Below are positions 1,600 to 46,358 of a stretch of 64,000 bases of DNA, piece by piece. The DNA is from Candidatus Pacearchaeota archaeon (GTDB taxonomy: Archaea > Nanobdellota > Nanobdellia > Pacearchaeales > GW2011-AR1). The notes beneath the pieces were generated by a model that saw only the letters and a list, made by a program, of their open reading frames with translations, did not search any database and was not told the origin of the DNA. Each line of letters starts with the position of its first letter. The first letter of the stretch is position 1. The DNA is taken from contig JAGVXF010000007.1 in the NCBI GenBank assembly GCA_018303925.1, forward strand, positions 56,775 through 120,774, written 5' to 3'. The translations under genes were made by a program, and so were the position numbers.

Positions 1600-2679
1600 A
1601 TGGTACTTGATTTTGCAAAAGAAGCAATTCAAAATGCTGAAACGCATAGCATAAACTTTGATGAATTGAAAGCAGGTAAAGCTGCAATTAAGGTTATCGG
1701 AGTCGGAGGGTGCGGGTCAAACATGATTACCTGGCTTTTTAACAAAGGAATTAATGGAGCAACGATTTACGCTGCAAATACTGATGCACTTCACCTTAGT
1801 GTAACAAAGGCTGATGAGAAAATTCTTTTAGGAAGGGAATTAACTCGTGGTCTTGGTGCCGGGGGAAAGGCTACTCGTGGGAGAGAGGCAGCTAAAGAAT
1901 CTTTGGTTGACTTGAAAAAGGCTGTTTCAGGTTCTGACATGGTTTTTGTTCTTGGCGGAATGGGTGGCGGAACAGGGACAGGCGGAGCGCCTGTTGTAGC
2001 GCAACTCGCTAAAGAGACAGGGGCGGTAGTTATTGGCGTTGTTACAATGCCTTTTGAATCTGAAAAAGCAAGAATTGACAAAGCAGAATTTGGATTGCAG
2101 GAATTAAGAGAAGCGACAGACACTTGTATTGTTCTTGACAACAATAGGTTAGTTGATATTGCAGGACAGCTTCCTTTAGAGCAGGCTTTTGCGGTTGCAA
2201 ATGAACTTGTGAGTACAATGGTTAAAGGAATAGTTGAAACAATAACTTTGCCTTCTTTAATTAACCTTGACTATGCTGATGTTTCGGCTATTATGAAAAA
2301 CGGCGGAGTTGCGGTTATTGGAATCGGAGAATCAGATGCTGCGGATCGTGTGCAGGAATCAGTTAAGCAAGCCCTTACTCATCCTCTACTTGATGTGGAT
2401 TACAAAGGTGCGAGCGGAGCTTTAGTGCACATAACATGCGGACCTGATTTGAAACTTGAAGAATTTGATGTTATTGGTAGAACTGTTTCAGAAAACCTTA
2501 GTGCTGATGCGCAGGTTATAATTGGTGCAAGGATTTCAAAAGACTTTATTGGGAAAGTGCGTGTCATAACAATTATGACTGGAGTTAAATCTCCGTACGT
2601 CCTAGGAAGGGATTTTGAAGATGCTGTAATGCCCAAATCCAGAGAATTGTCGGACCTTGGAATTGATATCTACGGATAA
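1600..2679 (+). CDS. ftsZ: Cell division GTPase FtsZ
   Basis: Tubulin/FtsZ signature GGGTGTG (GGMGGGTGTGGAPVVA), a GGCGSNM N-terminal G-box, and a length of 359 aa. Confidence 0.95.
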   Translation: MVLDFAKEAIQNAETHSINFDELKAGKAAIKVIGVGGCGSNMITWLFNKGINGATIYAANTDALHLSVTKADEKILLGRELTRGLGAGGKATRGREAAKESLVDLKKAVSGSDMVFVLGGMGGGTGTGGAPVVAQLAKETGAVVIGVVTMPFESEKARIDKAEFGLQELREATDTCIVLDNNRLVDIAGQLPLEQAFAVANELVSTMVKGIVETITLPSLINLDYADVSAIMKNGGVAVIGIGESDAADRVQESVKQALTHPLLDVDYKGASGALVHITCGPDLKLEEFDVIGRTVSENLSADAQVIIGARISKDFIGKVRVITIMTGVKSPYVLGRDFEDAVMPKSRELSDLGIDIYG

Positions 2680-5522: not shown

Positions 5523-5620
5523 CGTCTGAGGGAGGGCTCGAACCTCCGACCTATCGGTCTCAGCGAAAAATTTTAATTTTTCGTAACAGCCGATCGCTCC
5601 ACCAACTGAGCTACTCAGAC
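5523..5620 (-). tRNA. tRNA-Asn(GTT) with a 25-nt intron between positions 37 and 38
   Basis: Reverse complement reads GTCTGAG TA GCTC AGTTGGTG GAGC G ATCGG CUGUUA[intron]A CCGAT AGGTC GGAGG TTCGAGC CCTCC CTCAGAC G. Acceptor, D, anticodon and T stems all pair. The intron CGAAAAATTAAAATTTTTCGCTGAG contains a perfect 9-bp hairpin consistent with a bulge-helix-bulge splice substrate. Confidence 0.8.
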
Positions 5621-10263: not shown

Positions 10264-10812
10264 TTAAAGATTTATATTTAAGGGGAAAATTTTTTTATTC
10301 TCAAATATTTCATTTTTCTGCTGGTCCAGTGCATCAATTATTTCTTTTTTGAAACTAAAAATGTCAAAATCCATTGTTTCAATTACTTTCAATTTTTTCC
10401 CTTCAGTGTATGCCTGTATTGCTGAACCCTTCCCGATTTCAATAGGCGCATACTTATCAAAGTTTTTGCCTAAAAATTCTTTCGCAAAAGAATATTCATT
10501 ATAGTCAAAATTAATTATCGCCCTTAAAAAATAACAATTTCCCAATTCTCTTTCAACCTTTTTATTAAATTTAATTGTCTGATCTGACAAATTATTATAA
10601 CCTCTTTTTGAAAGATTATATGCAATTAAAAAATTTCTAAAATATTGTTTTTCCATAGTTGGAAGAATATTCTTTTCAAGATTTGTTAGAACTTCAAGGA
10701 CCACTTCTAAACTTATTTTTTTATCTTTTGAAATTATTATCGTTTCTTCCATTTTCTTAAACTTTTTGGACAAAACCTCTTCTTGGACGAAAAAGAGTTC
10801 CTTCCTTTGCAA
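10264..10812 (-). CDS. Hypothetical protein between the OB/wH gene and MCM
   Basis: 182-aa ORF in the same orientation as mcm. No motif recognised. Its position suggests a replication accessory protein (a GINS-like protein is one possibility), but this is a guess. Confidence 0.35.
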   Translation of the reverse strand: MQRKELFFVQEEVLSKKFKKMEETIIISKDKKISLEVVLEVLTNLEKNILPTMEKQYFRNFLIAYNLSKRGYNNLSDQTIKFNKKVERELGNCYFLRAIINFDYNEYSFAKEFLGKNFDKYAPIEIGKGSAIQAYTEGKKLKVIETMDFDIFSFKKEIIDALDQQKNEIFENKKIFPLNINL

Positions 10813-12785
10813 GCCTGTCTACGGCCTCTTCAATTTCTTCAGGAGTCAGCTTTCCTTCAAGTTTCTCTTCTACCTTTTTAATCGGGACAATTTCCCCGGT
10901 TTCTTTTATGAGTGCAAAAATTATGTCCCTGACAATAAAAACTTTATTTCTTTGGCTTGATTTCATTTTTCCGGAAATTTTGTCTATATCTATTTCTCCT
11001 GTTTCTTCGTCAAATCCAACTTGCTCAAGGTAGTATTTTAAAAGGTTTATTGCGACTTCCGCATCTTTTCCTTCTACTTTTTCAGACATCCTGAGTTTTG
11101 CCGCCGCTTCAGCCATTCTTATAAGAGAGTTAAGTTGCCTTGCCGAGATAGGAATTGTTCTCATTTCCTGTCCTTCAATCATCGGACGGTTTCGAAGGTT
11201 CACATAAAACTCTTTCATTTTTTCAACTGCTTCATTTGTTAATTTTGGCTGAACTCTTCGCCTTGCATATGCAATATATTTTCTGAAGAGTTCTTTTTCA
11301 ATTATCATTTCTTTTGCTTCTTTCTGATGTTCTTCTAAAATGTGGTCTGCAACTTTGGTGTCATTTCTCATATTTGGGATGTCCCTCATTGTAAAAATAA
11401 GGTCAAACCTGTTGATAAGCGCTGGAGGCAGGTTTATTTGCTGGGGGATTCCCTGAGTCGGGGGCCCGAAGGGTTGCCTGGATATTTGCTTTTGAGATTG
11501 TAACAGTTTGCTGCTCAAGGGCTTCATGCATTGCTGACTGGTCTGACGGGTCCATTTTTTCAAGTTCATCAATACAGACAAGACCTTTATTTGCCAAGAC
11601 CATGGCTCCTGCTTCAAGCGACCACCCTTTAAGATATTCATCTCTTATAACACTTGCAGTCAAACCTGCGCCTGAAGCTGATTTTCCAACGACATAACGG
11701 CCTTTCGGAGAAATATTTGCCATGAAATTCAAAATTACAGACTTTGCAACTCCTGGGTCTCCTATCATCATTATGTGAATATCCCCCCTTGTTTTTTGCC
11801 CGTCTGATTTTTGCTTTTGCACTCCACCAAAAAGCTGAAGAAGAAGAGATTCTTTTATTTTTTCATATCCCCATACACTTGGGGCGATACTATCTCTTAA
11901 ATTTTCACGGACATTTGGGTCTGCCGCAAGTTCCTGAATTTGCTGTTCATCTTCTTCGGTTATGTCAAGTTCTTCAAAAGTTTCTTCAAGAGGAATTATA
12001 TTATTTACTTCAATTGCAAGTTCAAAACGTGTTGACATTCCTCCCGTTGAGAGGGGAACAGGAACTTCATTTAATATTCCTATGACCCGTACTCTTGCTC
12101 CGGGAGTTGTTCTTTCTTCCATTTTAGGATCAACTAAATCTTCTTTTACAAAAACATTTATCCTTTTTGGCTGCTCTCCTCCGTGAAGCATGTCGGGAGC
12201 CTCTTCAACAATAAGTCTTTGCGTGTCAACCATCTCTTTTGAAATTAGTCTGAATCCCCCTCTTCTTCCGCAAGAGCATCGGCTTGGTTCCCTGAACTTT
12301 TTTTCAATCTGAAGGACCGAAATAATTGTTCCACAGCTTGGACATTCAAACTTTGCGTTTACAACCTGCGGACGAACATCTGAAGACTGGCGGATTATTC
12401 CTTCAATTATTATTAATTCATTTAAATGTTTTGAACGGATGTTTCTTATGAGAATTTCATCTGACTTTTCAAGGTTAAAAAGCCTCACTCTTACGTTTTC
12501 AATAAGTCCCATTTCTTCAACTGCAATTTCTATTATTCTAAGGGTTTCTTCAGGGTGTTTTATTATTTCTTCAGAGAGAACCGGCGATTCTTCAGCAATT
12601 TCCATAAAGTCAATATAAACAACATTATTTTCATCCCGCAAGGAAGATTTTAGTTTTTTTTTGTATGAATCAATAAAACGCTTTGATTCTAGGATAAGTT
12701 CTTCCTGCTTTCCTGTTTGCTCTGGTCTTTTAGTCTCAATTATTCTCTCCTCATCCGGTTCTTTTGTAAAGTCCACCTCATCCAT
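10757..12785 (-). pseudogene. mcm: MCM replicative helicase, interrupted; two overlapping ORFs in different frames
   Basis: The 5' ORF (12785..11403) has the Zn finger CPSCG...CSCG, Walker A IGDPGVAKS and Walker B CIDELEKM. The 3' ORF (11641..10757) has the arginine-finger INRFDLIF. At the frame change (about 11460-11475) TLRA in one frame runs directly into PFGPP in the other. The roughly 12-aa sensor-1 segment (NAR..V.AAANPK) expected between them is absent. Confidence 0.8.
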
Positions 12786-34679: not shown

Positions 34680-34880
34680 ATGGGCAAAGACATCAAACAT
34701 ATGAAGAAACTGCGCAAAAAAAGATTAAAATCGTTTAGAAAGCAAGTGGAAAAACACGAGGAAAAAATTGAAAATGAGAAGGGAAGGTTTGATACAACCA
34801 AAGATTACTGGGAAAAAGAAATAGATGAAAAATTTTTAAAAAAGATCGAAGAAGATGAAAATTATCTGGAGGAAAAATAA
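34680..34880 (+). CDS. Small basic protein (66 aa), paralog of the 32586 ORF
   Basis: Shares the conserved KSFRK.VEKHEEKIEN..G.....YWEKEI core with the 32586..32765 ORF. Its stop codon overlaps the ATG of the downstream NTase gene. Confidence 0.4.
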   Translation: MGKDIKHMKKLRKKRLKSFRKQVEKHEEKIENEKGRFDTTKDYWEKEIDEKFLKKIEEDENYLEEK

Positions 34881-35653
34881 TGGAAATACAAATTAAAAAG
34901 GCTGTCAAATCGGGGAATTCTTCAGCTGTAATTCTTCCAAAATCATGGTTGAATAAAGAAGTCCGAGTTGAACTTGTTGAAAAGTCCCCCGAAAAAATTC
35001 TTTCCGAAGTTCTGAATATTGTTGGAAATTATCTTGATTTAAAAAAGATAATAGGAGTTTATCTTGTGGGAAGTTATGCCCGTGGAGAAGAAGATGAGGG
35101 AAGTGACATTGATATTCTGGTTCTAACTGATGATTTAGACAGAAAGATGATTTCCAAAGGAGAGTATAATGTTTTAATCTTGTCTTCAAATCTATTAAAA
35201 CAAAAATTAGATAGGGATCTTCTCCCTATTGGGCCAATGATTCGAGAAGCGAAGCCTCTTTTGAATCTTAGCTATCTTGATTTAATAAAAGTAGAGGTTA
35301 CAAAAAAGAATGTTTCTTGGTACCTTCAAACTACAAAAGACAAATTAAGAATCATAAAAAGTATCCTTTCCAGAACAAAACTTAAATTTCTCGATAGTAG
35401 AATTGCTTATACTTTGGTTTTGAGAATAAGGACTCTTTATTTAATTAATAAGATGATAAAAAATGAAAAACCGTCAAAAAAGGAACTTATAGAAATAATA
35501 AAAAGCACTTCCGGAGGAGAAAATGCTTACAGAGGATATTTGGATGTAAAAAATAATTCAAAGAAAAAAAGAGAAATCAGCTCAGATGAAGCTCGGGGGC
35601 TGTATGATTATTTGAAGAATCTTTTATCTGATATTAAGATGCAATTAAACTGA
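34880..35653 (+). CDS. MazE/AbrB-like domain fused to a minimal nucleotidyltransferase (MntA-like), paralog 2
   Basis: N-terminal VKSGNSSAVILPKSW. NTase motif GSYARGEEDEGSDIDILV. Same architecture as the 31825 ORF. Confidence 0.6.
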   Translation: MEIQIKKAVKSGNSSAVILPKSWLNKEVRVELVEKSPEKILSEVLNIVGNYLDLKKIIGVYLVGSYARGEEDEGSDIDILVLTDDLDRKMISKGEYNVLILSSNLLKQKLDRDLLPIGPMIREAKPLLNLSYLDLIKVEVTKKNVSWYLQTTKDKLRIIKSILSRTKLKFLDSRIAYTLVLRIRTLYLINKMIKNEKPSKKELIEIIKSTSGGENAYRGYLDVKNNSKKKREISSDEARGLYDYLKNLLSDIKMQLN

Positions 35654-35937
35654 TTTTATATGGGCACAAATTTTATAAATATGAAATAATCGGAGGATCT
35701 GCAAAGAATATTTCTGAAAATCTAAAGAAAAAATATTACAAAATTGAATGGAGAGAAATTGTGAGGGCAAGAGATTTAATTGTCCATAGTTCTTTTAAAA
35801 TTGATTCCGATGCAATTTTTGGGATTATGGAAAAAGATTTTCCGATTTTAAAAGATCAAATTGATGAAATTTTGGAGAGCGGATGTGAATTCAAAAAAAC
35901 AAAAATATTTATAAAACACTTTAACCTAATTTTTAAA
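35638..35937 (+). pseudogene. HEPN (HepT/DUF86-type) C-terminal remnant without a start codon
   Basis: The open frame reads ...KYEIIGGSAKNISENLKKKYYKIEWREIVRARDLIVHSSFKIDSDAIFGIMEKDFPILKDQI..., which matches the HepT C-terminal half (IIGEA.KNLSE..K..YP.I.W..I.G.RN.LVH.Y..ID...VW). The roughly 40 aa of N-terminal HepT sequence is missing, and there is no ATG, GTG or TTG at a sensible position. It overlaps the NTase stop and ends at the start of the giant gene. Confidence 0.45.
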
Positions 35938-38900
35938 TGATAAAAGAGGGAAAGGTAATCTTTAGTTTATTATTTTTGCTAATCTTTGTTGTTGTGATTT
36001 TTTCAAGTTCATTTGTTTTAGGAGAATTAACATGTGCTGGGGGGACATTGACGGGAACTTACGCAGGATGTGATGGAGATTATGAGAATACCCAAACAGG
36101 AAGTTGCTGGTATAGACCCCCAATTTACTACCCCAATGGAACTGCGATGTACAATTTCAAGAGTTTGGGTCTTCGGGCAGAAGTTTATTGTTGGAATTTT
36201 GAAACTCCCGCTTTGTGTGGTTCCAATGACGAATATTGTAAATGGTATCATGGGCAAAATTCTTGTTATGGTCTGAGTCAGGAAAATTGCGGGTCAATAT
36301 ATTATCCTACTTGTTCTCCCCAATATTCAGATTATACCTGCTCTTGTCCTTTAGGGCAGCACAGTGATTTGGCAAGTACCCCTTTTGCATCATGCAGTGG
36401 AACTTTTGTGGAAAATTATACATCTAGTTATTGTTATTGGAGGGAGGGTGTAAAGGCTAATGCCATAAGTCAAGGTGAGTATTGCAGTTATTCTGATGCC
36501 GGTTCTTGCAGAGGTGCCGATGAATTCTGTGAATGGAATATCTTATCTTACTCAGCTACTTTTTCATGTATTGGATTTAATGAGCAAACATGTATGTTTA
36601 CTTCAGGATGCGTAGCGTCTTATGATACCAATTATCAATGTGTTTCAAATACATGCTCAGATACCGATGGGGGTTATGTTCCCGAAATACAAGGAACAGT
36701 TAGCGCTCAAAGTGGGGATACTGGGACAGATTTTTGTGAGGATGGTTATTTTTTAACTGAGTATTATTGTTCGAATAGTGTCGGATTCTCAGGACAGGAA
36801 ACCTGTAACTTTGGTTGTTTAAATGGAGAGTGCAAGCCTGTTCCTTGCCCAAGTTCTCAAGAAGGGGTAAATGGAGGAAACCTTGGATGTATTGATAAAA
36901 TAATTTCTAATTCTCATATTATTTATTCAACTTCTTCATGTACTAGTTTAAGTCAAATTTGTTCTGCATGTAATTCGGGTTATTATCCTTCTTATGATTA
37001 CGCTACAGAATCTTATATTTGTCACGCTATCCCTGATACTTGCTCTGACAGCGACGGGATGAATTATAATACCCGAGGGACCGTGAATGCAAGTAGGGGA
37101 TATTCAGGAACTGATTATTGCGCTGATTCCGGGGGAGACCCAGGGGCTCCAACTTCAGAAGGGGATATTTTATGGGAGTTTGGATGTTCAGGAACGACCG
37201 GAGTTAAAAATATTTATGGGGATTGCCAGTATGGATGTTCAGAGGGAAAGTGTAATCCTACTCCTCCCCTCCCAGATTGTCCTGTTACCCAAACTGGAAC
37301 TATATATGTAGGATGTGTACAGGATCAAGATATAAATTCAAATCTAATTAACTATGCCCATTCAACAAATGATTTATGTAGTGATGAATATGTGTGTTTT
37401 CAATGTAATTCAGGATACATCTGGGACGGAAATAATTGTGTTCTTAAATGTCCAAGTCCACAACCAGGAACGAGCGGGGGAAATTTGGGATGTTTAGAAA
37501 ATCAGGTTTTATATTCTTACGTTTTGTATCCCACCTCTTCATGTACTAGTTTAAGTCAAATTTGTTCTGCATGTAATTCTGGTTATTATCCTTCTTATGA
37601 TCACGCTACAGAGTCTTATATTTGTGTTCCTGTGTCTATTTCATGTACGGATACAGATTTAGGTCAAGCTTATCCTGAATATTTCAAAGGGTCTCTAACT
37701 GCAACGACGGGGATAACAAATGGTATGGATAATTGTGCAGATTCAACACATTTAAATGAATATTTTTGTGATGCATCAAACCGAGGTTCACTTGATTCCA
37801 ATCATCTTTGCCCAAAAAACTATGGTTGTAATAGTGGCGCATGCAGAGACTTTTATTTTGTTGGCACATCAGATGGTAATAAAATTTTATCTTTAGGTCA
37901 GGGAACAACTCTTCCTAAGACGATTAAATTTGTTGGTTCAGCTTATTCAGGGTCAGGAGGAGGGTCTTTTTCACTTTATGAAAGGGCTTGGACAAATGAA
38001 TTCTGGGGATGGTGTGATATTTGTGCAGCAGATACTCTTGTTGGGACTTATTCAGGAAATACTCAGGATTTTAACGGCGATGGGGTTAATGATTATTTAA
38101 GTGACAGTTGGACTTTAAATTCAAATGTTTTAAATTCTTTAGAATCTGATGGGCCGTATGACAAGTATGAATTTTATTTTAAAGTTGGTTCTTATCAAAG
38201 TTCTGGTTTGTTGGTTGATCCAAGTCTTGACACCTGCCACGACGAAATTCAAAATGGTGGCGAAGAAGGTATTGATTGTGGTCCTGTGTGTGGAAATGAA
38301 TGTCTTTTTTGTCAGGACAGCGATGGAGGGCAAATTTATGATGTTCAAGGAAGGATAATTGCAAACAATGGGTTACATACAAGCGGGACAGATTTTTGTG
38401 ATGATTCAACTCATTTAAATGAATATTATTGTAGTGCTGCTAATGCAGGTTCTTTAGAGATACGCCACTATTGTGGGGCTGGAAATGCATGTTCAAATGG
38501 AGTTTGCACAGGAGAGCAAATTCCTAATTCAATTGTTTATTGGGCTTATAAAACCTATCAGGAGGCACCCGGATATTTAGAGGTATTAAACTCAAGTATT
38601 GGTTCTTTTGGAAGAAGATTAGTTTTAACTTATCCAGAACCTTCTCTTAGTTCATTTCAGATATTTAAAGAAAGCAATGCAATTTTTATTCCCGATACAT
38701 TGGTAAGAGAAGAGTATGGTTCATCATTTTCTAATTTTTATTTTTATGATTGGATTCCTTCTTATGCGGATTTTATGAATGCAGGAACTCCGACTTTTAG
38801 CAATAATACATATAGATTTTACTTTAAGGTGGACGATGGAGATAGTCGTTTAACAAGCAATTATTGGGATGTTTATGTAATTGGAGAGGTTCCTTCATGT

Positions 38901-39545
38901 ACTGATGGAGCGCAGAATGGGGATGAGGAAGGAGTTGACTGTGGAGGAAGCTGTCCAAACGAATGTGAACCAGATATAGATCAGTGCCTTGGAATAGATT
39001 TTTGTATGGATTATACCAGCGAGGCGACATGTAATTTAGATAATTGTAGTGTTGCACAATATAGTGGTTATGCTCCTTCCGGTACAACTCCTTTGTGTAT
39101 TTGGTATTCGGTAGTTCCCGAGGAATGTATCTTTGGCTATTCAGGAAGTAATTATGGGGTTTGTATGCACCACGATAGCCCGACAAATGACAGTTGTGAG
39201 GATGACGGTTTTTTAACTCATATATGGACTAATGAATATTCCTGGGATTTAGATAATGCTTTTTCAACCCAGCAGGCATGTGAGGTTTATACATCTGAGT
39301 GTTCAGGCAATTGTGTCTTAAGGGGAAGTTCATGGCATTGTGATCCCAATGGAGAAGAAACAACGTGCTTAAATGGAGAAACTACTGCAACAATTCCATG
39401 CCCTGCTCAAATACAACTTGGATTTTTTGATTGGCAGAATGTGGTAGTTGCTATTCTTGTAATTTTCCTTTTGTATTTAATTCTTTTGAAGAATAAGAAG
39501 ACACAAACAGAAAAATCCTCGAAAGGCAAAAAGAGAAAAAAATAG
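35937..39545 (+). CDS. Giant secreted Cys-rich modular surface protein (1202 aa) with C-terminal TM anchor and basic tail
   Basis: Signal peptide. Four copies of an approximately 60-aa module C.D[ST]DG..GT....G.D.C.D...L.EY[YF]C...C..GC..G[AK]C. Two NG-EEG-DCGG-C-NEC modules. An approximately 200-aa tandem duplication. C-terminal TM AILVIFLLYLILL followed by KKTQTEKSSKGKKRKK. Confidence 0.7.
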   Translation: MIKEGKVIFSLLFLLIFVVVIFSSSFVLGELTCAGGTLTGTYAGCDGDYENTQTGSCWYRPPIYYPNGTAMYNFKSLGLRAEVYCWNFETPALCGSNDEYCKWYHGQNSCYGLSQENCGSIYYPTCSPQYSDYTCSCPLGQHSDLASTPFASCSGTFVENYTSSYCYWREGVKANAISQGEYCSYSDAGSCRGADEFCEWNILSYSATFSCIGFNEQTCMFTSGCVASYDTNYQCVSNTCSDTDGGYVPEIQGTVSAQSGDTGTDFCEDGYFLTEYYCSNSVGFSGQETCNFGCLNGECKPVPCPSSQEGVNGGNLGCIDKIISNSHIIYSTSSCTSLSQICSACNSGYYPSYDYATESYICHAIPDTCSDSDGMNYNTRGTVNASRGYSGTDYCADSGGDPGAPTSEGDILWEFGCSGTTGVKNIYGDCQYGCSEGKCNPTPPLPDCPVTQTGTIYVGCVQDQDINSNLINYAHSTNDLCSDEYVCFQCNSGYIWDGNNCVLKCPSPQPGTSGGNLGCLENQVLYSYVLYPTSSCTSLSQICSACNSGYYPSYDHATESYICVPVSISCTDTDLGQAYPEYFKGSLTATTGITNGMDNCADSTHLNEYFCDASNRGSLDSNHLCPKNYGCNSGACRDFYFVGTSDGNKILSLGQGTTLPKTIKFVGSAYSGSGGGSFSLYERAWTNEFWGWCDICAADTLVGTYSGNTQDFNGDGVNDYLSDSWTLNSNVLNSLESDGPYDKYEFYFKVGSYQSSGLLVDPSLDTCHDEIQNGGEEGIDCGPVCGNECLFCQDSDGGQIYDVQGRIIANNGLHTSGTDFCDDSTHLNEYYCSAANAGSLEIRHYCGAGNACSNGVCTGEQIPNSIVYWAYKTYQEAPGYLEVLNSSIGSFGRRLVLTYPEPSLSSFQIFKESNAIFIPDTLVREEYGSSFSNFYFYDWIPSYADFMNAGTPTFSNNTYRFYFKVDDGDSRLTSNYWDVYVIGEVPSCTDGAQNGDEEGVDCGGSCPNECEPDIDQCLGIDFCMDYTSEATCNLDNCSVAQYSGYAPSGTTPLCIWYSVVPEECIFGYSGSNYGVCMHHDSPTNDSCEDDGFLTHIWTNEYSWDLDNAFSTQQACEVYTSECSGNCVLRGSSWHCDPNGEETTCLNGETTATIPCPAQIQLGFFDWQNVVVAILVIFLLYLILLKNKKTQTEKSSKGKKRKK
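36933..37023 (+). repeat. Internal direct repeat copy A (about 91 nt) within the giant gene
   Basis: tcttcatgtactagtttaagtcaaatttgttctgcatgtaattcgggttattatccttcttatgattacgctacagaatcttatatttgt is repeated 603 nt downstream with 3 mismatches. Confidence 0.85.
37536..37626 (+). repeat. Internal direct repeat copy B (about 91 nt) within the giant gene
   Basis: Near-identical to 36933..37023 (g/t, t/c and a/g differences). It encodes SSCTSLSQICSACNSGYYPSYD(Y/H)ATESYIC in both copies. Confidence 0.85.
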
Positions 39546-39548
39546 ACG

Positions 39549-39995
39549 TTAATTATTATTTATAAATTTTATAATTTCTTCCTTGAATTTTTCAAAATCC
39601 TGCAACTTTTCTGACAAGATTTCATATATGATTTCGTTGTCGGTTTCCCCATATTTATGAACGAGAATATTTCTAAATCCTTTCATTCCCATCAATATTT
39701 CTTTTAATTCTTTTGAAATTACTCCTTTCTTGTAAGTTTTTTCTATTAGATCCTCTTCTCCCGAGGGGAGTCCCAATTTAAGCCCGGAAGTGATTATGTT
39801 TAGGATGTCAATAATTGTTTCTATAGATATTTGCAATAATCTTTCGCATGCCCTTTTATCTTTTATGGAATTTTTGTAAATTTCTAAATTTTCAGGAATT
39901 ATCTCTTCAAGTTCGGAAAGATATTTATTCAATTCATCTATCTTTGATAAAATCCTTTTATTATCTAATTTTGACATTTTCGAGGTAACTATCAT
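39549..39995 (-). CDS. HEPN-domain toxin-like protein (HepT/DUF86 family)
   Basis: C-terminal GFRNILVHKYGETDNEIIYEIL carries the R-x4-6-H HEPN motif (RNILVH). It lies downstream of, and overlaps, the MNT gene. Confidence 0.75.
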   Translation of the reverse strand: MIVTSKMSKLDNKRILSKIDELNKYLSELEEIIPENLEIYKNSIKDKRACERLLQISIETIIDILNIITSGLKLGLPSGEEDLIEKTYKKGVISKELKEILMGMKGFRNILVHKYGETDNEIIYEILSEKLQDFEKFKEEIIKFINNN

Positions 39996-40341
39996 AAATT
40001 TTTTTGTAGAATCCGAATTCTTTTATTGTTTCAAAAGCAATCTCGTACATTTTATCCTCATCTTTTATTAAAATAAATTTTCCTTCTTTTAATATTCTTA
40101 TCTTAATATAAACGGGCAATTGCTCAAATATATGAATATCTAATTTTGAATCGAATTTTGAAGCATATTTTAATTTTATTTTTGACATTTCTTTATTGCT
40201 TTTCTTTTCTTTTAAAACCAGCGCAATGTCAATATCCCGGTAATCTTCTTTTCTTGCATATGATCCAAACAAAGCAACAGCTAAAACTTCTTTGTCTTTT
40301 TCTGCTTCTTTAATAATCTTGGAGGTAATTTCTTTCATCAA
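39961..40341 (-). CDS. Minimal nucleotidyltransferase (MntA-like antitoxin)
   Basis: LFGSYARKEDYRDIDIAL (GS...D.D). 126 aa. Overlaps the downstream HEPN gene by 35 nt. Confidence 0.8.
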   Translation of the reverse strand: MMKEITSKIIKEAEKDKEVLAVALFGSYARKEDYRDIDIALVLKEKKSNKEMSKIKLKYASKFDSKLDIHIFEQLPVYIKIRILKEGKFILIKDEDKMYEIAFETIKEFGFYKKIYDSYLENVKIR

Positions 40342-40498: not shown

Positions 40499-41992
40499 AT
40501 GGGAAGGAAATTAAGGAATTTGGTAGCAGCCGTTGGGATTACTTTAGCGACGCTTTCTCCAATGAAATATGCAAATGCACAGGTTGACAGCTTAAATACC
40601 CCTCTTTCTTTAGAGAGAGCCGGAAATTTTTTCTCTCCATCAGGGGTTAATGAACTTGTTGGAAAACCATGGAAATATGGGGATGGAGATGTCAATCATG
40701 ATGGAAGAACGGATAGTTTTGATTTAGCAGTTATAGATTCAGTTTCAAATGATGAAGGGGATATAGATGGGGACAGCCTTTCTTCATCTGCAAATGACAA
40801 GCAAATATTGTCTGATTATTTGAATGGAAATATCCCTTATTTACCGGGGGACTGGGCAAATTTAAACAAGGAAGAAAAAACTTCGTGGATTAAAAAGATG
40901 ATAAAAATTCAAAATTCTCTTCCTAATACAGATTATAGTCAATGGGTTTGCAGAAATTTTATAACCCAAATGGAACTTGAATTTTACGGTTCTTCAAATA
41001 TCGATGGATTTATACAATATTATCATGATAATGGAGAACCACAGGGGGGGGAATATTATTTGGGAGAAAAAAATGCAAGGTTTGGTTTGCCTGTTGTTTA
41101 TGCTGGCACAATAAACACCTCAGGGGAATCTCATTCTGTTAATGGGGTTCTTGTTGGTAAAGACCCTTTGAATTTTAATGATTGGTATTTTTTTGGATAC
41201 GAAAATGATAATCAGGTTGTTCCTGGCTCCCAGCAAATGGATTCAAATAGCCCCGTTTCAATTGGATTGAATGGATATTTTAAAGGACCTTTTGGACCTG
41301 TTTTTAGTCCTCTTTCCGATTTGATACAATTTGAATTGCAGGGCGGAGAAGTTGTAAATATAATTCATAAAAATTATGTCACACTTCACAATCCCGAGAA
41401 AATAAAAGTTCATCTTGGAAAACTTGAAAAAATAGTAATTGATAATAATTCTTTTCCAGATGTGACAAATTTTACCCCCGAATTTTTGGAGAGTCAGGGA
41501 TATAAAGCAATACCGGATACTTCTTCGGAGAATGCTTTTGGAATTCCGGTTAAATTGACTCATGAAGATTCAGATACTACAAATGTTTCATACAGACATT
41601 TTCAGTTTTTAAGAAAGTTTGTTGGTTCAGTTTATTCAGGGGGAATAACAAAGTCAGATTCTTCCCCACAAATAATTGAGGTTAATAATTTTACACCCGT
41701 TGAACCAGAGGATTTTTATTTGCCGGATGAATTCAAGATTTACCAGAATTATCCTAATCCATTCAACCCAACGACAAATGTGAAGTATGAGACAAACAGA
41801 TATGGAGATGTAAAATTGGAAGTTTACAATAATTTGGGGCAGAAAGTTTATGAAAAAACAGATAAAGGAGTTTATCCCGGGGTTCATGAATTTAAGGATA
41901 TAGATATGTCAAAATATGCTTCGGGAATGTATCTTTTTAGAATTTATGAGGGGGAGAAATTCAAATCTATAAAAGGTGTTTTACAAAAATAA
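40499..41992 (+). CDS. Secreted protein with N-terminal dockerin-like repeats and C-terminal T9SS (Por_Secre_tail)-like sorting domain
   Basis: Signal peptide ending ANAQ. Dockerin type-I-like pair GDVNHDGRTDSFDLAVIDSV and DIDGDSLSSSANDKQILSDYLNG. C-terminal KIYQNYPNPFNPTTNVKYE...VYNNLGQKVYE...GVHEF...ASGMYLFRI...KGVLQK matches the bacterial T9SS C-terminal domain consensus. Confidence 0.6.
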   Translation: MGRKLRNLVAAVGITLATLSPMKYANAQVDSLNTPLSLERAGNFFSPSGVNELVGKPWKYGDGDVNHDGRTDSFDLAVIDSVSNDEGDIDGDSLSSSANDKQILSDYLNGNIPYLPGDWANLNKEEKTSWIKKMIKIQNSLPNTDYSQWVCRNFITQMELEFYGSSNIDGFIQYYHDNGEPQGGEYYLGEKNARFGLPVVYAGTINTSGESHSVNGVLVGKDPLNFNDWYFFGYENDNQVVPGSQQMDSNSPVSIGLNGYFKGPFGPVFSPLSDLIQFELQGGEVVNIIHKNYVTLHNPEKIKVHLGKLEKIVIDNNSFPDVTNFTPEFLESQGYKAIPDTSSENAFGIPVKLTHEDSDTTNVSYRHFQFLRKFVGSVYSGGITKSDSSPQIIEVNNFTPVEPEDFYLPDEFKIYQNYPNPFNPTTNVKYETNRYGDVKLEVYNNLGQKVYEKTDKGVYPGVHEFKDIDMSKYASGMYLFRIYEGEKFKSIKGVLQK

Positions 41993-42160: not shown

Positions 42161-44809
42161 ATGAAAGAAAAAAGGGGAGGTAGTTATTTTTTAGCTGTAA
42201 TTCTATTTATCTTTTTAATTTCATATGTATCCGCATCTTATGAGTTTTCAAATCATTCAATTGAAACTCATTATTCAAAAGGCTCAACCATCTCAGGAAA
42301 TATTAATATTTCTTTTGAGAACGAATCTTTGAATTCTTTTTTTGAAGATTCATTTGATAACAAGGTTTACCTTAAAGATTTACTCGGAGGTTCGAATTCA
42401 TATTTATACAACTGTACTTCCAAGAAATGTTCTTCATCATATGTTCTTTCAAACCCATCAAGTTCCAAAACTTTTTCTCTTCCAAAAGGTGAAGAAAAGA
42501 CCTTTGGATTTGTGATTCAGGGAAATATTCAGAACATAAATTCGGTTTCTTTTTTGCTTTCAAGCACTGCTCCCGCGTCAGATTTAAATCAGATAAAAAT
42601 CGATATTTTAGATGATGGAATTATTGATGCAGGAAACTCCAAAGCCGGAACTGCTTCGCAGAATGTGAATTATGGTTGTTATAATGCAAGCGAGGGGCCA
42701 AACGAGATAAACCTTATAACTACTCCTTTTTGCCAGAATATAACTGTATATGAATCTCCGGGTCTGCTTCTTGGAGGATTTTTTAAAAAAGTCTCAGACG
42801 GGTCAAATGGAATTGGATTGAATATTTACAATAAAAAAGGAGTTTCTCTTGGATCATGCAGAATTTTAAATTCAAGTGTCTCTTTTTCAGGAGGGAACTA
42901 TTTTTGCAGTGTGAATGTCTCTATACCTGAAACTAATAATTATTATATCTGTGCTTATGCAGAACAGGGAGAGGCCAAATACAAAACTCTTGGATATTCT
43001 TCTTTGTCATCAGGAAAAAATTGCGGTTTTTTAGGTTATTTAAGTTTTCCCCCCCAAAATGAAACTGCGGCATACAAGATAGGTCTGACCCCCTTAAAAT
43101 TTTCTTCTCCAAGTGCTCTTAATATCTCAAATGTCCTTCCAACTGGAGATTTAATCTCTTTACTCATCGGAGAATATCTCTCCAAAACTTATCCTGAAGG
43201 CTGCCTTGAGGGATGCAAGATCCCTTTAAAATTAGTTTCTTTTGAAGACCAGTCAATCACTTTAAACAGCCTGAAAGTCAGTTATGATGCAGAATCGCTT
43301 CCAGGTCTGGAGATTTCAACTTTTTATGATTTTGACATTCAAGACTCAAAAGTCAGTTCTCCAATGCAGTTACTTCCTCTTGACGGATTTTTTTATGTTT
43401 CTCAGTTAGGGTGGGATGAAAATTACACCCTCAAATTTAAAGGAGAAAAACTTTTTAGTGAAAAGATTTTCCTTGAAAACTTCTCCATTCAGATTTATCC
43501 CTTAAGATATGCTGTTAATTTTTCTGTTCCTTTTTTAATATTAAATTCTCAGGATGCGGGTTCACAGTATTATGAAATTGATTTTGGAGACAATTCCATT
43601 TCCACAACTTCGTCAAAATCTTTTTTGCACAAATATATTTCAGTTGGGAATTTTAGTTTAAAGGTTTCGTCTTATATAAACGGCACCAAATTAACAAAAA
43701 CCTTCAAAATAGAAATTCTTCCTTCAAAAAACTTTATTGACAATGAAATTAAAATCCAGAGGAGTTCCATTTCTTTTTTTAACTCACAGATATCTTTTAT
43801 GAATTCTTTTGAAAAGTCAGAAATAAACAGAATTTTTGAACTTGAGAACCTGACTACCACACTTAATTCAATTGAATCTTCTGTTTCTTTGGCGTCTTCG
43901 GATTCGGATTATGAGAAAATTTTCGGGAATTTAATCAGGCTTAATATTCCAAAGTCAATTACTCGCACAGTCTCCCAGGAAATCCCTTTTATTATTGAGG
44001 TAAATGAAATAAATCTGGATATCCTTAAGGATATAACCGAAGAAGACTATTCCCCTGCCGATGAAAGTGCTGATTATATTTCTTTTTGGGATTATGAAAA
44101 TCTTAATTCAAAAATCTCCTCTAACAATATTTTAGTTGAGACAGCAGACGGTTCAAAAGTTCCTCTTAATTTTTATGAGATTTCTATCTCTCCTAAAAAA
44201 AATATTAACCAGTCTTATTATTTTATTTTTCCAAATTCGGGGAATGCCAATTTTGAAGAAAATTCCGGAGTTGAGGCCGGGAGCGGGTATTCCTATTTTG
44301 AACTTGGAAACATTGAAAAAACTATAAGGTTTTCAACCGGGGAAGATTTTGGGTCGTATCATCCTTTTTTTATTGCCCCACAGAATGTTGAAGTTTTCGC
44401 AGGAGGGGACATTTCCGAACCCATGAATAATAACTGGATATTGATTTTAGTAATTCTGGGGGTTATTCTAATAGGGTTTTTAACTTATTACATTATGCAC
44501 AGGTGGTATGCTGTTAAGTATGAAAATTATCTTTTCCCTGATAAAAACCACCTTTACAATGCAATTTTTTATATAAATAATTCATTAAAGAATGGAATGG
44601 AAGAGAGTGAAATAAGAAAGAGTCTGCTTGATGCTGGATGGAAAAATGAGCAGGTTGTTTACTTAATAAAAAAGCATTCAGGAAAGAATCCGGGGATGTT
44701 TAATCTGTTTGGTTCTTCAAGTGAAAAGGGATCCTCAAAAATAAATTCACCTCCAAAACCTGGAAGAAATGTGAATTATAAGGATTCAAATACAAAATTT
44801 AATAAATAA
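42161..44809 (+). CDS. Type-I membrane surface glycoprotein with PKD-like domain and cytoplasmic tail (882 aa)
   Basis: Signal peptide. Dense N-x-S/T sequons. PKD-like YYEIDFGDNSIS...HKYISVGNFSLKVS. TM WILILVILGVILIGFLTYYI followed by an approximately 110-aa cytoplasmic segment. Confidence 0.6.
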   Translation: MKEKRGGSYFLAVILFIFLISYVSASYEFSNHSIETHYSKGSTISGNINISFENESLNSFFEDSFDNKVYLKDLLGGSNSYLYNCTSKKCSSSYVLSNPSSSKTFSLPKGEEKTFGFVIQGNIQNINSVSFLLSSTAPASDLNQIKIDILDDGIIDAGNSKAGTASQNVNYGCYNASEGPNEINLITTPFCQNITVYESPGLLLGGFFKKVSDGSNGIGLNIYNKKGVSLGSCRILNSSVSFSGGNYFCSVNVSIPETNNYYICAYAEQGEAKYKTLGYSSLSSGKNCGFLGYLSFPPQNETAAYKIGLTPLKFSSPSALNISNVLPTGDLISLLIGEYLSKTYPEGCLEGCKIPLKLVSFEDQSITLNSLKVSYDAESLPGLEISTFYDFDIQDSKVSSPMQLLPLDGFFYVSQLGWDENYTLKFKGEKLFSEKIFLENFSIQIYPLRYAVNFSVPFLILNSQDAGSQYYEIDFGDNSISTTSSKSFLHKYISVGNFSLKVSSYINGTKLTKTFKIEILPSKNFIDNEIKIQRSSISFFNSQISFMNSFEKSEINRIFELENLTTTLNSIESSVSLASSDSDYEKIFGNLIRLNIPKSITRTVSQEIPFIIEVNEINLDILKDITEEDYSPADESADYISFWDYENLNSKISSNNILVETADGSKVPLNFYEISISPKKNINQSYYFIFPNSGNANFEENSGVEAGSGYSYFELGNIEKTIRFSTGEDFGSYHPFFIAPQNVEVFAGGDISEPMNNNWILILVILGVILIGFLTYYIMHRWYAVKYENYLFPDKNHLYNAIFYINNSLKNGMEESEIRKSLLDAGWKNEQVVYLIKKHSGKNPGMFNLFGSSSEKGSSKINSPPKPGRNVNYKDSNTKFNK

Positions 44810-44827: not shown

Positions 44828-45472
44828 ATGGCAATAAAAATAATGGCAAATTTTTTCAAAAAAATCTTTTCAGGCCTATTCAAAAATAAGAAAGATATAA
44901 AACTGGGTTTTTACGGTCCGCCTAATGCAGGGAAAACAAGCCTTGCAAATAGAATATGCAAAGATTTTACAGGAGAGGAGATAGGCTCTGTTTCAAAAAT
45001 TCCCCATGAGACAAGAAATGTGCAGTTTAAAGAAAAAGTTGAAATCTCTTATAAGGGAAAATCAATGATTTTTAAGATGATTGACACTCCCGGGATAGCA
45101 ACACGCATTGATTACGAGGATTTCTTAAAATATAAAGTAAACAAAAAAGATGCAAAAATAAGGGCAAAAGAGGCCACTCAGGGAATTATTGAGAGCATAA
45201 AATGGCTTGATGACATGGATGTTGTTGTTATTGTCCTTGATGCAACTGAAAACCCTTACAATCAGGTTAATATAACCATAATAGGAAATCTTGTTGCAAG
45301 AAAAATTCCGGTTTTAATTGTTGCAAATAAATCCGACTTAAGAAAGGCGAACATAAAAAAGATTGAAGAGGCTTTTCCGGAATACAGGGTCGTTGGAATG
45401 AGCGCTAAGTACGGAAAGAATTTTGAAGAGTTTTATGAGGAAATTTTTAGCCTTTCAAAAAAATTAAAGTAA
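44828..45472 (+). CDS. Small Ras-superfamily GTPase (hydrophobic residue in place of the catalytic Gln)
   Basis: G1 GPPNAGKTS, G3 DTPGIA (no Gln after DxxG) and G4 NKSD. 214 aa. Confidence 0.8.
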   Translation: MAIKIMANFFKKIFSGLFKNKKDIKLGFYGPPNAGKTSLANRICKDFTGEEIGSVSKIPHETRNVQFKEKVEISYKGKSMIFKMIDTPGIATRIDYEDFLKYKVNKKDAKIRAKEATQGIIESIKWLDDMDVVVIVLDATENPYNQVNITIIGNLVARKIPVLIVANKSDLRKANIKKIEEAFPEYRVVGMSAKYGKNFEEFYEEIFSLSKKLK

Positions 45473-45473
45473 A

Positions 45474-45881
45474 ATGTCAAAAAAAGAGTTAAGGAACAAA
45501 AGAATAAAGGGGTTTTCAATAAGGTTTATGCCCTATTCCGAAATAAAAAATTTAAATAGCACAGAAAGAATAAGAAAAATTTTAGATATTGTATTTCAAA
45601 ATTATATCCTTATTTTGCAGGGGAGGCTTAAAAATGAAGAAGAAACAAGGCTTATTGGAGATACAATGGCAATGATTGGCCACGTGAAAAATTTCAAGGG
45701 AATTGAACTTGCGGTTATTAGTTCTGATGAAAGAGTTGGTGCAATTGACAGGATAAAAAACAGGCTTGTTATGAGTCTTTCAGGCGGGGATATCGGAGCA
45801 ATTACAATAATCGGCCCCGCTTCAATTGTGAAAGAGATAAAGAAAGATCCCAAAAAGATTGAATTGATGCTGAATAAATAA
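45474..45881 (+). CDS. Conserved hypothetical protein co-oriented with the GTPase (possible DUF2073-like or roadblock-like partner)
   Basis: 135 aa. Start is 2 nt after the GTPase stop. No motif recognised by eye. Confidence 0.35.
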   Translation: MSKKELRNKRIKGFSIRFMPYSEIKNLNSTERIRKILDIVFQNYILILQGRLKNEEETRLIGDTMAMIGHVKNFKGIELAVISSDERVGAIDRIKNRLVMSLSGGDIGAITIIGPASIVKEIKKDPKKIELMLNK

Positions 45882-45962
45882 AACTTAATTTCTAATTTAA
45901 AATTTCCTAAATATTTTTAAGTCTCAGTTACCTTATGTTTTTAAGGAGAGTCAAAGCAAAAA

Positions 45963-46358
45963 ATGCCCCACCAATGTGTCCGGTGTTCGAGAATTATTTC
46001 TGCAAGCAGCAGGGAGCTTTTAGATGGATGTCAAAACTGCGGGAGCAGGTTCTTTTTTTATGTCCGGGAAGAACAACTTGAAAGGTTAAGAGAAAGAGTA
46101 ATTGAAATTCCGCAAGAAGATAGACAAAAAATTGAGGAGGATGTTCGCGAGATTGCGGGAATAAAAGATGATGAGATTCCGGTTATTCTGGATTTTGAAT
46201 CGGTAAGGGTTACAGGAGATGGAAAGTTTGAACTGGATTTGGTGAACCTTTTTAATAAAAAGAAACCTTTAGTTTACAAACTTGAGGAAGGAAAATATTT
46301 AATTGATATTGGGAGAACTCTTCAGACTCGTTCCGAAGAGGATAAAGGGCTGATTTAA
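45963..46358 (+). CDS. Zn-ribbon-containing small protein (possible DUF2072-like)
   Basis: N-terminal CVRC...x13...CQNCG zinc ribbon. 131 aa. Third gene of the same-strand block after the GTPase. Confidence 0.4.
   Translation: MPHQCVRCSRIISASSRELLDGCQNCGSRFFFYVREEQLERLRERVIEIPQEDRQKIEEDVREIAGIKDDEIPVILDFESVRVTGDGKFELDLVNLFNKKKPLVYKLEEGKYLIDIGRTLQTRSEEDKGLI

Follow-up and report, generated by a model that had tools for sequence, protein, structure and literature searches.

A probable Pacearchaeota orthologue of DipABC/ArcoABC

Three adjacent genes in a Candidatus Pacearchaeota (DPANN) genome, located in the 64-kb window of our study (by window we mean this whole stretch of DNA), probably constitute the orthologue of the oapABC/arvABC/dipABC/arcoABC genes, to which the Min-like mechanism of FtsZ positioning would carry over, a reading that we hold with good confidence based on family membership and conserved motifs. 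The division-site system is already known, and nothing of a new kind comes with this locus. Earlier work on H. volcanii treats the trio as OapABC/ArvABC, in connection with extracellular vesicle formation (2024, peer-reviewed; PMC10927574), and as DipABC and ArcoABC in two independent 2026 preprints on Haloferax (PMC13228585; 10.64898/2026.07.23.738820); its presence in DPANN has been published as well (PMC10927574; 10.64898/2026.07.23.738820). The phrase "functionally uncharacterised", used for this neighbourhood in a preliminary description of the locus, is therefore outdated. In H. volcanii, a Min-like pole-to-pole oscillator places the FtsZ1 ring: the GTPase (A) is membrane-bound when GTP-bound, the SepF-like protein (B) stimulates hydrolysis and frees A, and the Zn-ribbon protein (C) binds FtsZ1 and stops its polymerisation; deletion leads to minicells (PMC13228585; 10.64898/2026.07.23.738820). 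All of the functional data were obtained with proteins of H. volcanii, a haloarchaeon, and of A. fulgidus, a hyperthermophile. Our analysis of the Pacearchaeota locus covers family identity, conservation of motifs and helices, operon order and the FtsZ gene in the same genome, while GTP-dependent membrane cycling, B-stimulated release and FtsZ inhibition in Pacearchaeota are what we infer by homology.

According to the ORF list, the three genes lie on the + strand, at exactly the coordinates that the preliminary description gave:

44828..45472, + strand: GTPase gene dipA/arcoA/arvA/oapA (A), 214 aa, an ORF with Pfam MMR_HSR1
45474..45881, + strand: dipB/arcoB/arvB/oapB (B), 135 aa, predicted SepF-like partner, Pfam OapB (formerly DUF2073)
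45963..46358, + strand: dipC/arcoC/arvC/oapC (C), 131 aa, Zn-ribbon protein, Pfam OapC (formerly DUF2072)

The claimed co-orientation is thus confirmed, and so is the close spacing, with 1 nt between A and B (TAA-A-ATG) and 81 nt between B and C; the figures of 2 and 82 nt given earlier are trivially off by one. Assignment to Pfam families identified the 135-aa partner as OapB (PF09846; 61.4 bits against a gathering score of 27, E-value 9e-17) and the 131-aa partner as OapC (PF09845; 73.2 against 23, 3e-20), as the earlier mention of DUF2073 and DUF2072 had anticipated, and the GTPase as MMR_HSR1 (59.6 against 21.9, 4e-16). Since these scores are well above gathering and homologues of the trio proteins number in the thousands, the three ORFs are genuine genes and not chance ORFs. 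A - strand ORF at 45602..45853 is nested in the B gene, which is itself strongly supported; judging from this location only, the nested ORF is in all likelihood a spurious shadow ORF. There are no RNA genes or repeats of note around the trio locus, the repeats close to it being AT-rich chance matches.

Conservation of the trio and its genomic context

We compared gene neighbourhoods in the best 80 matches of a profile search of genome contigs, all of them DPANN and from species-representative genomes, and in 80 more distant loci from metagenomes with a GC content of 26-63%. The A-B-C order, co-oriented and tightly spaced, is found in these 160 loci wherever the contig allows. The earlier likening to a conserved GTPase/DUF2073/DUF2072 neighbourhood was therefore right (160/160 loci), and the opposite outcome that had been considered, namely, unrelated partners in a trio that is not conserved, is contradicted by OapB and OapC being the partners throughout. 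Within the neighbourhood, conservation is highest for the GTPase, with a median identity of 82%, compared with about 51% for the housekeeping genes cca and spp next to it; the GTPase identity is 76-92% across 79 species-representative loci and 58-66% in the distant loci. The protein on which the system is expected to act, a genuine FtsZ, has its gene in the same window and scores 372.7 bits against a cutoff of 295.2 for NCBIfam TIGR00065:

1600..2679, + strand: FtsZ (FtsZ1 or FtsZ2), Pfam Tubulin and FtsZ_C

A large gene precedes the trio:

42161..44809, + strand: type-I membrane protein, 882 aa, ending 18 nt before the GTPase gene

Homologues of this protein, for which Pfam contains no family, are encoded co-oriented and directly upstream of the trio in 77/80 Pacearchaeota/Woesearchaeota/Nanoarchaeota loci, with a median gap of 47 nt. 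The protein is fast-evolving; only its TM helix and juxtamembrane cytoplasmic tail, at aa ~781-840, are well conserved. Such a homologue is absent beside A-B-C in the 80 more distant loci, which rules out a universal fourth component; the linkage is clade-specific, and membership in the trio unit is tentative. Since cca, trmB and spp show synteny with the trio to the same degree within the close clade, the upstream linkage may be plain regional synteny. That this surface protein is a fourth Dip/Arco component specific to Pacearchaeota/Woesearchaeota-type DPANN lineages is a long shot, which we put forward together with a second, modest proposal, the K+ activation of A. If it were such a component, its tail could link the cell surface, for instance a host-contact site, with the GTPase/FtsZ-positioning cycle in the cytoplasm.

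The GTPase and its membrane-targeting helix

The elements of A that bear on its class and on membrane binding are as follows:

44831..44887, + strand: N-terminal amphipathic basic helix, aa 2-20, AIKIMANFFKKIFSGLFKN, predicted membrane-targeting
44915..44950, + strand: G1/P-loop G30-PPN33-AGK36-T, plus N41; both K+-signature Asn present
45083..45100, + strand: G3/switch II D86-TPGIA, with Ile instead of the catalytic Gln, HAS-GTPase type

Besides the Walker A sequence GPPNAGKT (aa 30-37), the protein has an invariant HETR in switch I, G4 at N167-KSD and G5 at S192-AK. The closest 120 listed homologues, which for each trio protein are only near DPANN relatives, all have DTPGI[ATS] in switch II (120/120), and DTPGI is found in 61/61 sequences of the alignment, followed by A (59 sequences) or T (2 sequences); in this alignment, N33, N41 and I90 each reach at least 95% conservation. 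As Ile follows DxxG, the catalytic Gln of Ras and Arf is absent, just as previously described. The accompanying label "Ras-superfamily" is debatable: A is indeed a small GTPase, but it does not pass the thresholds of the Arf (21.8 bits vs 22.3), Ras (20.0 vs 21.6) and SRPRB (21.3 vs 25) Pfam models, and its best PDB matches are EngA/Der (1e-9) and TrmE, with Arf reaching only 4e-5 over a partial stretch. The HMM evidence thus favours the Era/EngA/TrmE class as the nearest one. Zheng et al. use the label "Ras-superfamily" and place ArcoA as sister to SRbeta and near Arf in their tree, and also term it "Era-like" in a model legend (10.64898/2026.07.23.738820).

According to the rule for K+ activation of TEES GTPases, a protein of this kind has GxxNxGK[ST] together with a second Asn 5 residues past the Lys (PMC3466195). 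A matches this signature with N33 and N41, and has the hydrophobic I90 in place of the catalytic Gln. In view of the two signature Asn and the hydrophobic replacement, we propose that its catalysis may be K+-assisted, as in MnmE, FeoB and EngA. If so, B would act by placing the switch regions or by promoting dimerisation, without an arginine finger, and if A is K+-activated (GAD-type), the published GAP and GEF roles of C and B would be wrong. The assays of AfDipA were all carried out in 100-150 mM KCl (PMC13228585). A resembles the TEES class (MnmE, FeoB, EngA/Der, Era) in the P-loop Asn, the second Asn, the hydrophobic residue at the Gln position and the best HMM and PDB similarity, but differs from it in being a single G domain with an Arf-like N-helix and without a KH/RNA-binding or transporter domain, and in that the published phylogeny puts its family closer to SRbeta/Arf. 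With Arf/Sar1/SRbeta it shares the N-terminal amphipathic helix just before the P-loop and, probably, GTP-dependent membrane binding. The G3 motif of ARF1 is DVGGQ; in contrast, A has DTPGI without the catalytic Gln, as well as the P-loop Asn and Arf and SRPRB Pfam scores below gathering, and its partners are unrelated to ArfGAP or the Sec7 GEF.

The N-terminal helix stands out within the protein. Its aa 2-19 have the highest hydrophobic moment of A (0.59), and aa 3-20, with a moment of 0.55 and a net charge of +4, are matched by only 1.2% of shuffles. The F/L/I-K/R pattern is kept in the 120 close and in 66 distant homologues. The helix together with the P-loop region aligns with the N-terminus of ARF1 at 32% identity over 63 residues. 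The predicted helix corresponds to the membrane-targeting sequence of ArcoA (residues 1-20) and DipA, whose membrane binding has been demonstrated in experiments (PMC13228585; 10.64898/2026.07.23.738820).

The partner proteins B and C

The best match of the predicted model of B is SepF by two methods, not Roadblock, and Pfam gives no Roadblock/LC7 match in B; the SepF likeness has already been published for HVO_3013 (PMC13228585; 10.64898/2026.07.23.738820). An amphipathic element lies within the protein:

45738..45779, + strand: internal basic amphipathic helix of B, aa 89-102, GAIDRIKNRLVMSL; predicted helix 90-102

With a hydrophobic moment of 0.46 and a net charge of +2 (aa 88-102), and with alternating hydrophobic and basic residues that are kept in both the close and the diverse alignments, this helix is positionally equivalent to the membrane-binding element described at ArcoB 89-97 and DipB 85-99 (PMC13228585; 10.64898/2026.07.23.738820). 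The predicted core of B would share the SepF fold, and the B protein of A. fulgidus is dimeric and membrane-binding (PMC13228585). On the other hand, B lacks the N-terminal membrane helix of SepF and has instead an internal helix set into the core, it partners a GTPase whereas SepF anchors FtsZ, and it belongs to a separate clade that is sister to SepF.

The Zn-ribbon that had been noticed in the 131-aa protein, CxxC...CxxCG, is confirmed:

45975..46040, + strand: Zn-ribbon C5-xx-C8-x14-C23-xx-C26, four Cys, then G

Across 56 homologues, each of the four Cys is either invariant or conserved to at least 90%, and the conserved blocks are located at the N-terminus (Cys4, FFFY) and at the C-terminus (GKFE.D, EGKY.ID). 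An NCBI protein from a Candidatus Pacearchaeota archaeon matches C with 100% identity, and the length of C fits that of non-halobacterial DipC (131.5 +/- 19.6 aa; PMC13228585). It is predicted to be an FtsZ antagonist. The model of C is of low confidence and has no structural neighbours, and Pfam detects no ArfGap domain in it. A candidate arginine finger, R29, located 3 residues past the last Cys, was rejected, as this position varies among R, K and H.

Comparison with the characterised systems

Our comparison with H. volcanii is based on Pfam family membership and on the motifs and positions quoted in the papers; the H. volcanii genes, when sought by tblastn in plasmid and phage collections, gave no matches. 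The Pacearchaeota locus has the same three families as DipABC/ArcoABC (HVO_3014/3013/3012), in the same order and orientation. In H. volcanii DipA, the Walker A motif GPPNAGKT occupies residues 31-38 and DTPG residues 87-90 (PMC13228585), and both are identical in the Pacearchaeota protein, shifted by one residue (DTPG at aa 86-89). The likeness extends to the N-helix of A, the internal basic helix of B, the conserved termini of C and an FtsZ in the genome. The differences are that DipC of H. volcanii has 330 aa with a long disordered linker, as opposed to 131 aa here, that the H. volcanii operon adjoins orc1/oriC and the Pacearchaeota operon does not, and that B has an N-terminal polybasic extension, unlike in the H. 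volcanii system. In addition, the Pacearchaeota clade has the large type-I membrane protein gene immediately upstream, and presumably sub-micron cells. The system follows the logic of MinD/MinE/MinC, with an NTPase that bears an amphipathic helix and binds membrane depending on its nucleotide, a releasing activator that is small and dimeric, and a passenger that inhibits FtsZ polymerisation, but without homology in sequence or fold: A belongs to the TRAFAC class of GTPases and is not a ParA/MinD ATPase, B is predicted to be SepF-like and is not MinE, and C is a Zn-ribbon protein and not MinC.

Alternative explanations

The trio might primarily be a machine for the budding of extracellular vesicles (ArvABC), in which A, as an Arf-like GTPase, would deform the membrane by inserting its helix, with B as the exchange factor and C as the GTPase-activating protein. 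In H. volcanii, knockout of arvA reduced vesicles 2.9-fold and overexpression raised them 3.5-fold, knockout of arvB reduced them 3.1-fold and knockout of arvC raised them 1.65-fold; the vesicles are enriched in the GTPase, and the ArvA family takes in DPANN homologues (PMC10927574). The alignability of the N-helix and P-loop of A with ARF1 points in the same direction. We nevertheless consider this reading unlikely, though it retains a real chance, since the two later independent studies show oscillation, FtsZ1 inhibition, B-driven release and minicells (PMC13228585; 10.64898/2026.07.23.738820), C has no ArfGap domain, no conserved Arg and no structural neighbour of its model, and A has HAS/K+-type catalytic features with EngA/TrmE closest by HMM. 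The vesicle phenotypes could be secondary to division or envelope defects, and the vesicle and division roles are not mutually exclusive. A polarity module of the MglA/MglB type, that is, a Ras-like GTPase with a Roadblock/LC7 GAP, was suggested in the preliminary description. In its favour, the trio joins a small GTPase to a small co-transcribed partner, and the Dip/Arco system does govern spatial organisation and pole-to-pole dynamics. With no Roadblock/LC7 Pfam match in B, a SepF-like model of B and no MglA chain among the PDB matches of the GTPase, we give it next to no credence; the homology is not supported, while the idea of a small GTPase in spatial or polarity control comes near the current view.

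The Pfam names suggest "origin-associated proteins" tied to chromosome replication. The H. volcanii operon does adjoin oriC1/orc1 (PMC10927574; PMC13228585; 10.64898/2026.07.23.738820), DipB binds DNA in vitro (PMC13228585), and an MCM gene lies immediately upstream in 5 distant loci. However, a Pfam scan of all ORFs with 110 aa or more across the 64-kb window turns up no Orc1/Cdc6 domain, none is found among the neighbour families recurring around A-B-C in distant loci, and no replication phenotype was found in H. volcanii (PMC10927574). We therefore rejected origin association for this locus and regard such a role of the genes as highly improbable; adjacency to orc1/oriC describes where the operon lies in haloarchaea and does not define its function. 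As for A being an ordinary Era/EngA-like ribosome-assembly factor beside two unrelated small genes, its best Pfam, NCBIfam and PDB similarity is indeed to MMR_HSR1, Der, Era and TrmE, and it is publicly annotated as "Era-like GTP-binding protein" or "50S ribosome-binding GTPase". Yet the NCBIfam equivalog scores fall far under their cutoffs (e.g. Der, 64.7 vs 306.7), the G domain alone is matched, with no KH or other RNA-binding part, A bears a conserved predicted membrane-targeting helix, and the linkage to OapB/OapC is invariant in 160 loci, leaving this explanation hardly any probability.

Proposed mechanism and implications

As orthologues of DipABC/ArcoABC, the Pacearchaeota proteins would work as follows. 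GTP-bound A would anchor itself in the cytoplasmic membrane by inserting the amphipathic helix at its N-terminus, and would recruit C, which would bind FtsZ(1) and block its polymerisation wherever A sits. A dimer of the predicted SepF-like B, bound to the membrane via its internal basic helix, would stimulate hydrolysis by A and release it, and the resulting A/B reaction-diffusion cycle would keep the FtsZ inhibitor off the future division site. Very small cells are to be expected in Pacearchaeota, and Zheng et al. point out that an oscillator in sub-micron cells needs explaining (10.64898/2026.07.23.738820). The median identity of 82% indicates that the GTPase is under strong selection in sub-micron DPANN cells, a setting in which oscillation from pole to pole is difficult to picture. 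If the 882-aa protein did couple the cycle to the cell surface, tiny episymbiotic cells could set their division plane without true pole-to-pole oscillation.

Pacearchaeota MAG annotations of the kind "Era-like GTPase / DUF2073 / Zn-ribbon" can be upgraded accordingly. More broadly, the Dip/Arco system is the archaeal counterpart of Min, proposed to be as old as the last archaeal common ancestor, and its membrane-switching small GTPase bears on the origin of the eukaryotic Arf/SRbeta-type GTPases.

Identification of the three-gene block

We found three co-oriented ORFs exactly where the preliminary description had placed a GTPase with two small partners. They are listed here with the ORF that ends 18 nt before A.

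42161-44809, + strand, upstream ORF, 882 aa, without a Pfam family
44828..45472, + strand, A, GTPase, 214 aa
45474..45881, + strand, B, 135 aa
45963..46358, + strand, C, 131 aa

The spacing is as close as described, though the gaps first counted as 2 and 82 nt are 1 nt (A-B, TAA-A-ATG) and 81 nt (B-C). Antisense to B, inside its gene, lies an 83-aa ORF that is most likely a shadow ORF, judged solely by its position within this well-supported gene. Neither in the block nor beside it did we find an RNA gene or a structured repeat.

B matches the Pfam family PF09846 'OapB' with 61.4 bits (gathering score 27), and C matches PF09845 'OapC' with 73.2 bits (gathering score 23). Since OapB and OapC are the renamed DUF2073 and DUF2072, the earlier suggestion of these two families was right. 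The cysteines of C (C5xxC8...C23xxC26G) lie in a conserved ribbon, confirming it as a Zn-ribbon protein, and its C-terminal block is also conserved. The motif set of A is complete (G30-PPNAGK-T37, HETR, D86-TPGIA, N167-KSD and S192-AK); HETR in switch I is invariant, and Ile indeed replaces the catalytic Gln in DTPGIA. The Ras-superfamily label of A is debatable: this GTPase scores best against MMR_HSR1 and the G-domain models of Der, Era, TrmE and HydF, whereas the Arf, Ras and SRPRB models fall slightly under their gathering cut-offs. Among PDB sequences, EngA/Der (1e-9) and TrmE lead, while an archaeal Arf appears only at 4e-5 over a short stretch. No solved relative of OapB or OapC was detectable by sequence search; the model of C is poor (pLDDT 60.1) and no structural neighbor of it was found, as was also the case for Mills et al. 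(PMC10927574). An NCBI protein from 'Candidatus Pacearchaeota archaeon' has exactly the sequence of C (100% identity), and every close homolog belongs to a Pacearchaeota, Woesearchaeota or Nanoarchaeota MAG. At a 50% identity threshold, the B family comprises 266 clusters in a set of 1.84 billion representatives, which makes it compact.

The neighborhood, previously taken as functionally uncharacterized, has been studied in H. volcanii (PMC10927574; PMC13228585; 10.64898/2026.07.23.738820). Mills et al. 2024 renamed OapA/B/C (HVO_3014/3013/3012) ArvA/B/C and reported 1,666 homologs in 14 phyla, 7 of them DPANN, with B directly downstream in 93% of genomes (PMC10927574). Two independent 2026 preprints followed, on 'DipABC' (He et al., PMC13228585) and 'ArcoABC' (Zheng et al., 10.64898/2026.07.23.738820), the latter reporting that about half of the DPANN phyla possess arcoABC. 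Published work already covers the families and the operon, including how it functions in model archaea and that it occurs in DPANN, and two of the three proteins have Pfam names. The block is most likely a DPANN ortholog of this known system.

Conservation of the neighborhood

We scanned species-representative genomes for the B family and obtained more than 560 confirmed loci, the best 80 of which are all DPANN. Their gene order is the 882-aa ORF, A, B, C and cca, followed by trmB and spp in reverse orientation. All of it is present in 49 of 81 sequences (these 80 plus the window), most others being cut by contig ends. Median identities to the window are 82% (A), 69% (B), 62% (C), 51% (cca) and 31.5% (upstream ORF). 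The B-to-C spacer in these relatives is often far longer than the window's 81 nt (median 320 nt, up to 3.4 kb), indicating that C is coupled less tightly than A-B, in agreement with published statistics. One of these loci, L049 (JAHYJW010000003.1), carries a typical archaeal A-B-C with B 66% identical to the window's on a contig labelled 'Patescibacteria group bacterium'; mis-binning or mislabelling of this MAG contig is the probable cause.

Starting from distant B sequences, we also scanned metagenome contigs and obtained 80 further loci (GC 26-63%). A-B-C are co-oriented and a few nt apart in every one of them with enough sequence, and A is 58-66% identical to the window's, every motif being conserved. 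The conservation of the trio, suggested earlier, holds in both sets. Since homologs of the upstream ORF, cca and spp were undetected near A-B-C in the distant loci, the core unit is A-B-C. Only two weak matches to trmB occur there, about 8 kb off; the recurrent neighbors are a YchF-like GTPase, RtcB, TatD, adenylate kinase and, in five loci, MCM. In four of these five loci (the five being L102, L158 and three others) the MCM-family gene lies directly upstream of the GTPase and co-oriented, MCM being the sole replication-related recurrent neighbor seen.

The upstream protein has a type-I membrane topology (signal/anchor at aa 8-27, TM helix at aa 758-780, cytoplasmic tail of ~100 aa), with an ectodomain of ~730 aa bearing 17 N-x-S/T sequons. 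A homolog lies directly 5' of the GTPase in 77 of the 80 close loci, about 18-50 nt away and merely 26-39% identical, with the TM helix and tail best conserved. This fast-evolving, clade-specific protein could be a lineage-specific partner, or its position mere regional synteny.

Other features of the window

The window is typically archaeal, encoding FtsZ, MCM, TBP, DNA ligase, RtcB and archease, FttA/aCPSF1, a proteasome subunit, Rad50/Mre11 and an archaeal CCA enzyme. The MCM helicase occupies two overlapping ORFs (10757-12785, - strand), which suggests a frameshift, sequencing error or other interruption.

10757..11641, - strand, MCM part 2, P-loop positions 182-224 and lid
11403..12785, - strand, MCM part 1, N-terminal, OB, P-loop positions 1-164
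39549-40341, - strand, HepT-like RNase and Polbeta/MNT nucleotidyltransferase, a HepT/MNT-type toxin-antitoxin pair

Two more NTP_transf_2 proteins (31825-32607 and 34880-35653) flank RtcB (33216-34622), with archease (31362-31772) just upstream. A 497-aa secreted-looking protein (40499-41992, +) ends in a Por_Secre_tail (T9SS-type sorting domain, 36.4 bits), surprising in an archaeon. A 98-nt tRNA (5523-5620, -; Rfam 56.8 bits), unreported by ARAGORN, is probably an intron-containing archaeal tRNA. Two very large ORFs lack a Pfam family (24601-27774, +, 1057 aa; 35937-39545, +, 1202 aa), as do several ORFs neighboring them between 23077 and 31319.

Proposed mechanism and alternative roles

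Both preprints describe the trio as a Min-like oscillator, in which all three proteins oscillate from pole to pole and deletion of any gene mislocalizes FtsZ and yields minicells (PMC13228585; 10.64898/2026.07.23.738820). According to the two 2026 preprints, A. fulgidus A hydrolyzes GTP and attaches to liposomes only when GTP is present, by way of an N-terminal amphipathic helix; dimeric B raises the GTPase activity of A, detaches A from the membrane and has a membrane contact of its own, an internal amphipathic helix or basic loop; and C binds A as well as FtsZ1, whose filaments it abolishes. By homology, GTP-bound A would sit on the membrane carrying C, and C would block FtsZ assembly wherever such A sits; B would trigger GTP hydrolysis and so release A, and the A/B dynamics would keep C off the division site. 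A genuine FtsZ is encoded in the window (1600..2679, + strand).

The window proteins share several sequence features of this system. The motifs GPPNAGKT (31-38) and DTPG (87-90) of H. volcanii DipA recur identically in A at 30-37 and 86-89. Residues 2-20 are the most amphipathic segment of A (hydrophobic moment 0.55-0.59, net charge +4), a level reached by 1.2% of shuffles, and the pattern is kept in all homologs inspected; this segment with the P-loop aligns with ARF1 at 32% identity. Within B, residues 89-102 (GAIDRIKNRLVMSL) are predicted to form a conserved basic amphipathic helix at the same position as the experimentally defined ArcoB 89-97 element, and the length of C is typical of non-halophilic DipC. 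Polybasic extensions occur in 24 of 63 diverse OapB/DipB representatives (from P0361-P0510), 18 C-terminal and 6 N-terminal; that of the window B is N-terminal (MSKKELRNKRIK; 45474-45512, +). They may serve at either end as an additional element for binding membrane or DNA.

A primary role in vesicle budding draws on the altered extracellular-vesicle output of H. volcanii mutants, down on loss of A or B and up on loss of C (PMC10927574). We consider it unlikely. The phenotype may be secondary to division and envelope defects, or reflect a second function, a suggestion of ours that is absent from the papers. Far less probable still is an origin or replication role: no Orc1/Cdc6 domain was found by Pfam in any ORF of at least 110 aa of the 64-kb window, nor among the recurrent neighbors of the distant loci, so that the 'origin-associated' name reflects the haloarchaeal position and not this locus. 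Our tests likewise contradict homology to MglA/MglB, the polarity module proposed at the outset, and the reading of A as an ordinary ribosome-assembly GTPase, both of which we regard as highly improbable.

Within the Min-like system, the catalysis of A deserves comment. Mills et al. noted a resemblance of B to SepF (3ZIG) and proposed C as GAP and B as GEF (PMC10927574). A candidate arginine of C, R29, is not conserved, which opposes an ArfGAP-like role for C. K+-activated GTPases of the TrmE-Era-EngA class are defined by two Asn, one in GxxNxGK[ST] and one five residues past the Lys (PMC3466195). A has both, N33 and N41, each at least 95% conserved; given these and the Ile in place of the catalytic Gln, we infer that its GTP hydrolysis is probably cation-assisted. 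An arginine finger from B is probably not required. The published assays used 100-150 mM KCl throughout and never compared cations (He et al., PMC13228585), and potassium goes unmentioned by Zheng et al. (10.64898/2026.07.23.738820).

The residual interest of the locus lies in the K+ signature of A, the polybasic extensions on B, the fast-evolving membrane protein encoded upstream in this clade, and how strongly very small DPANN cells conserve the GTPase; a Min-like system in sub-micron cells was called a puzzle by Zheng et al. (10.64898/2026.07.23.738820).
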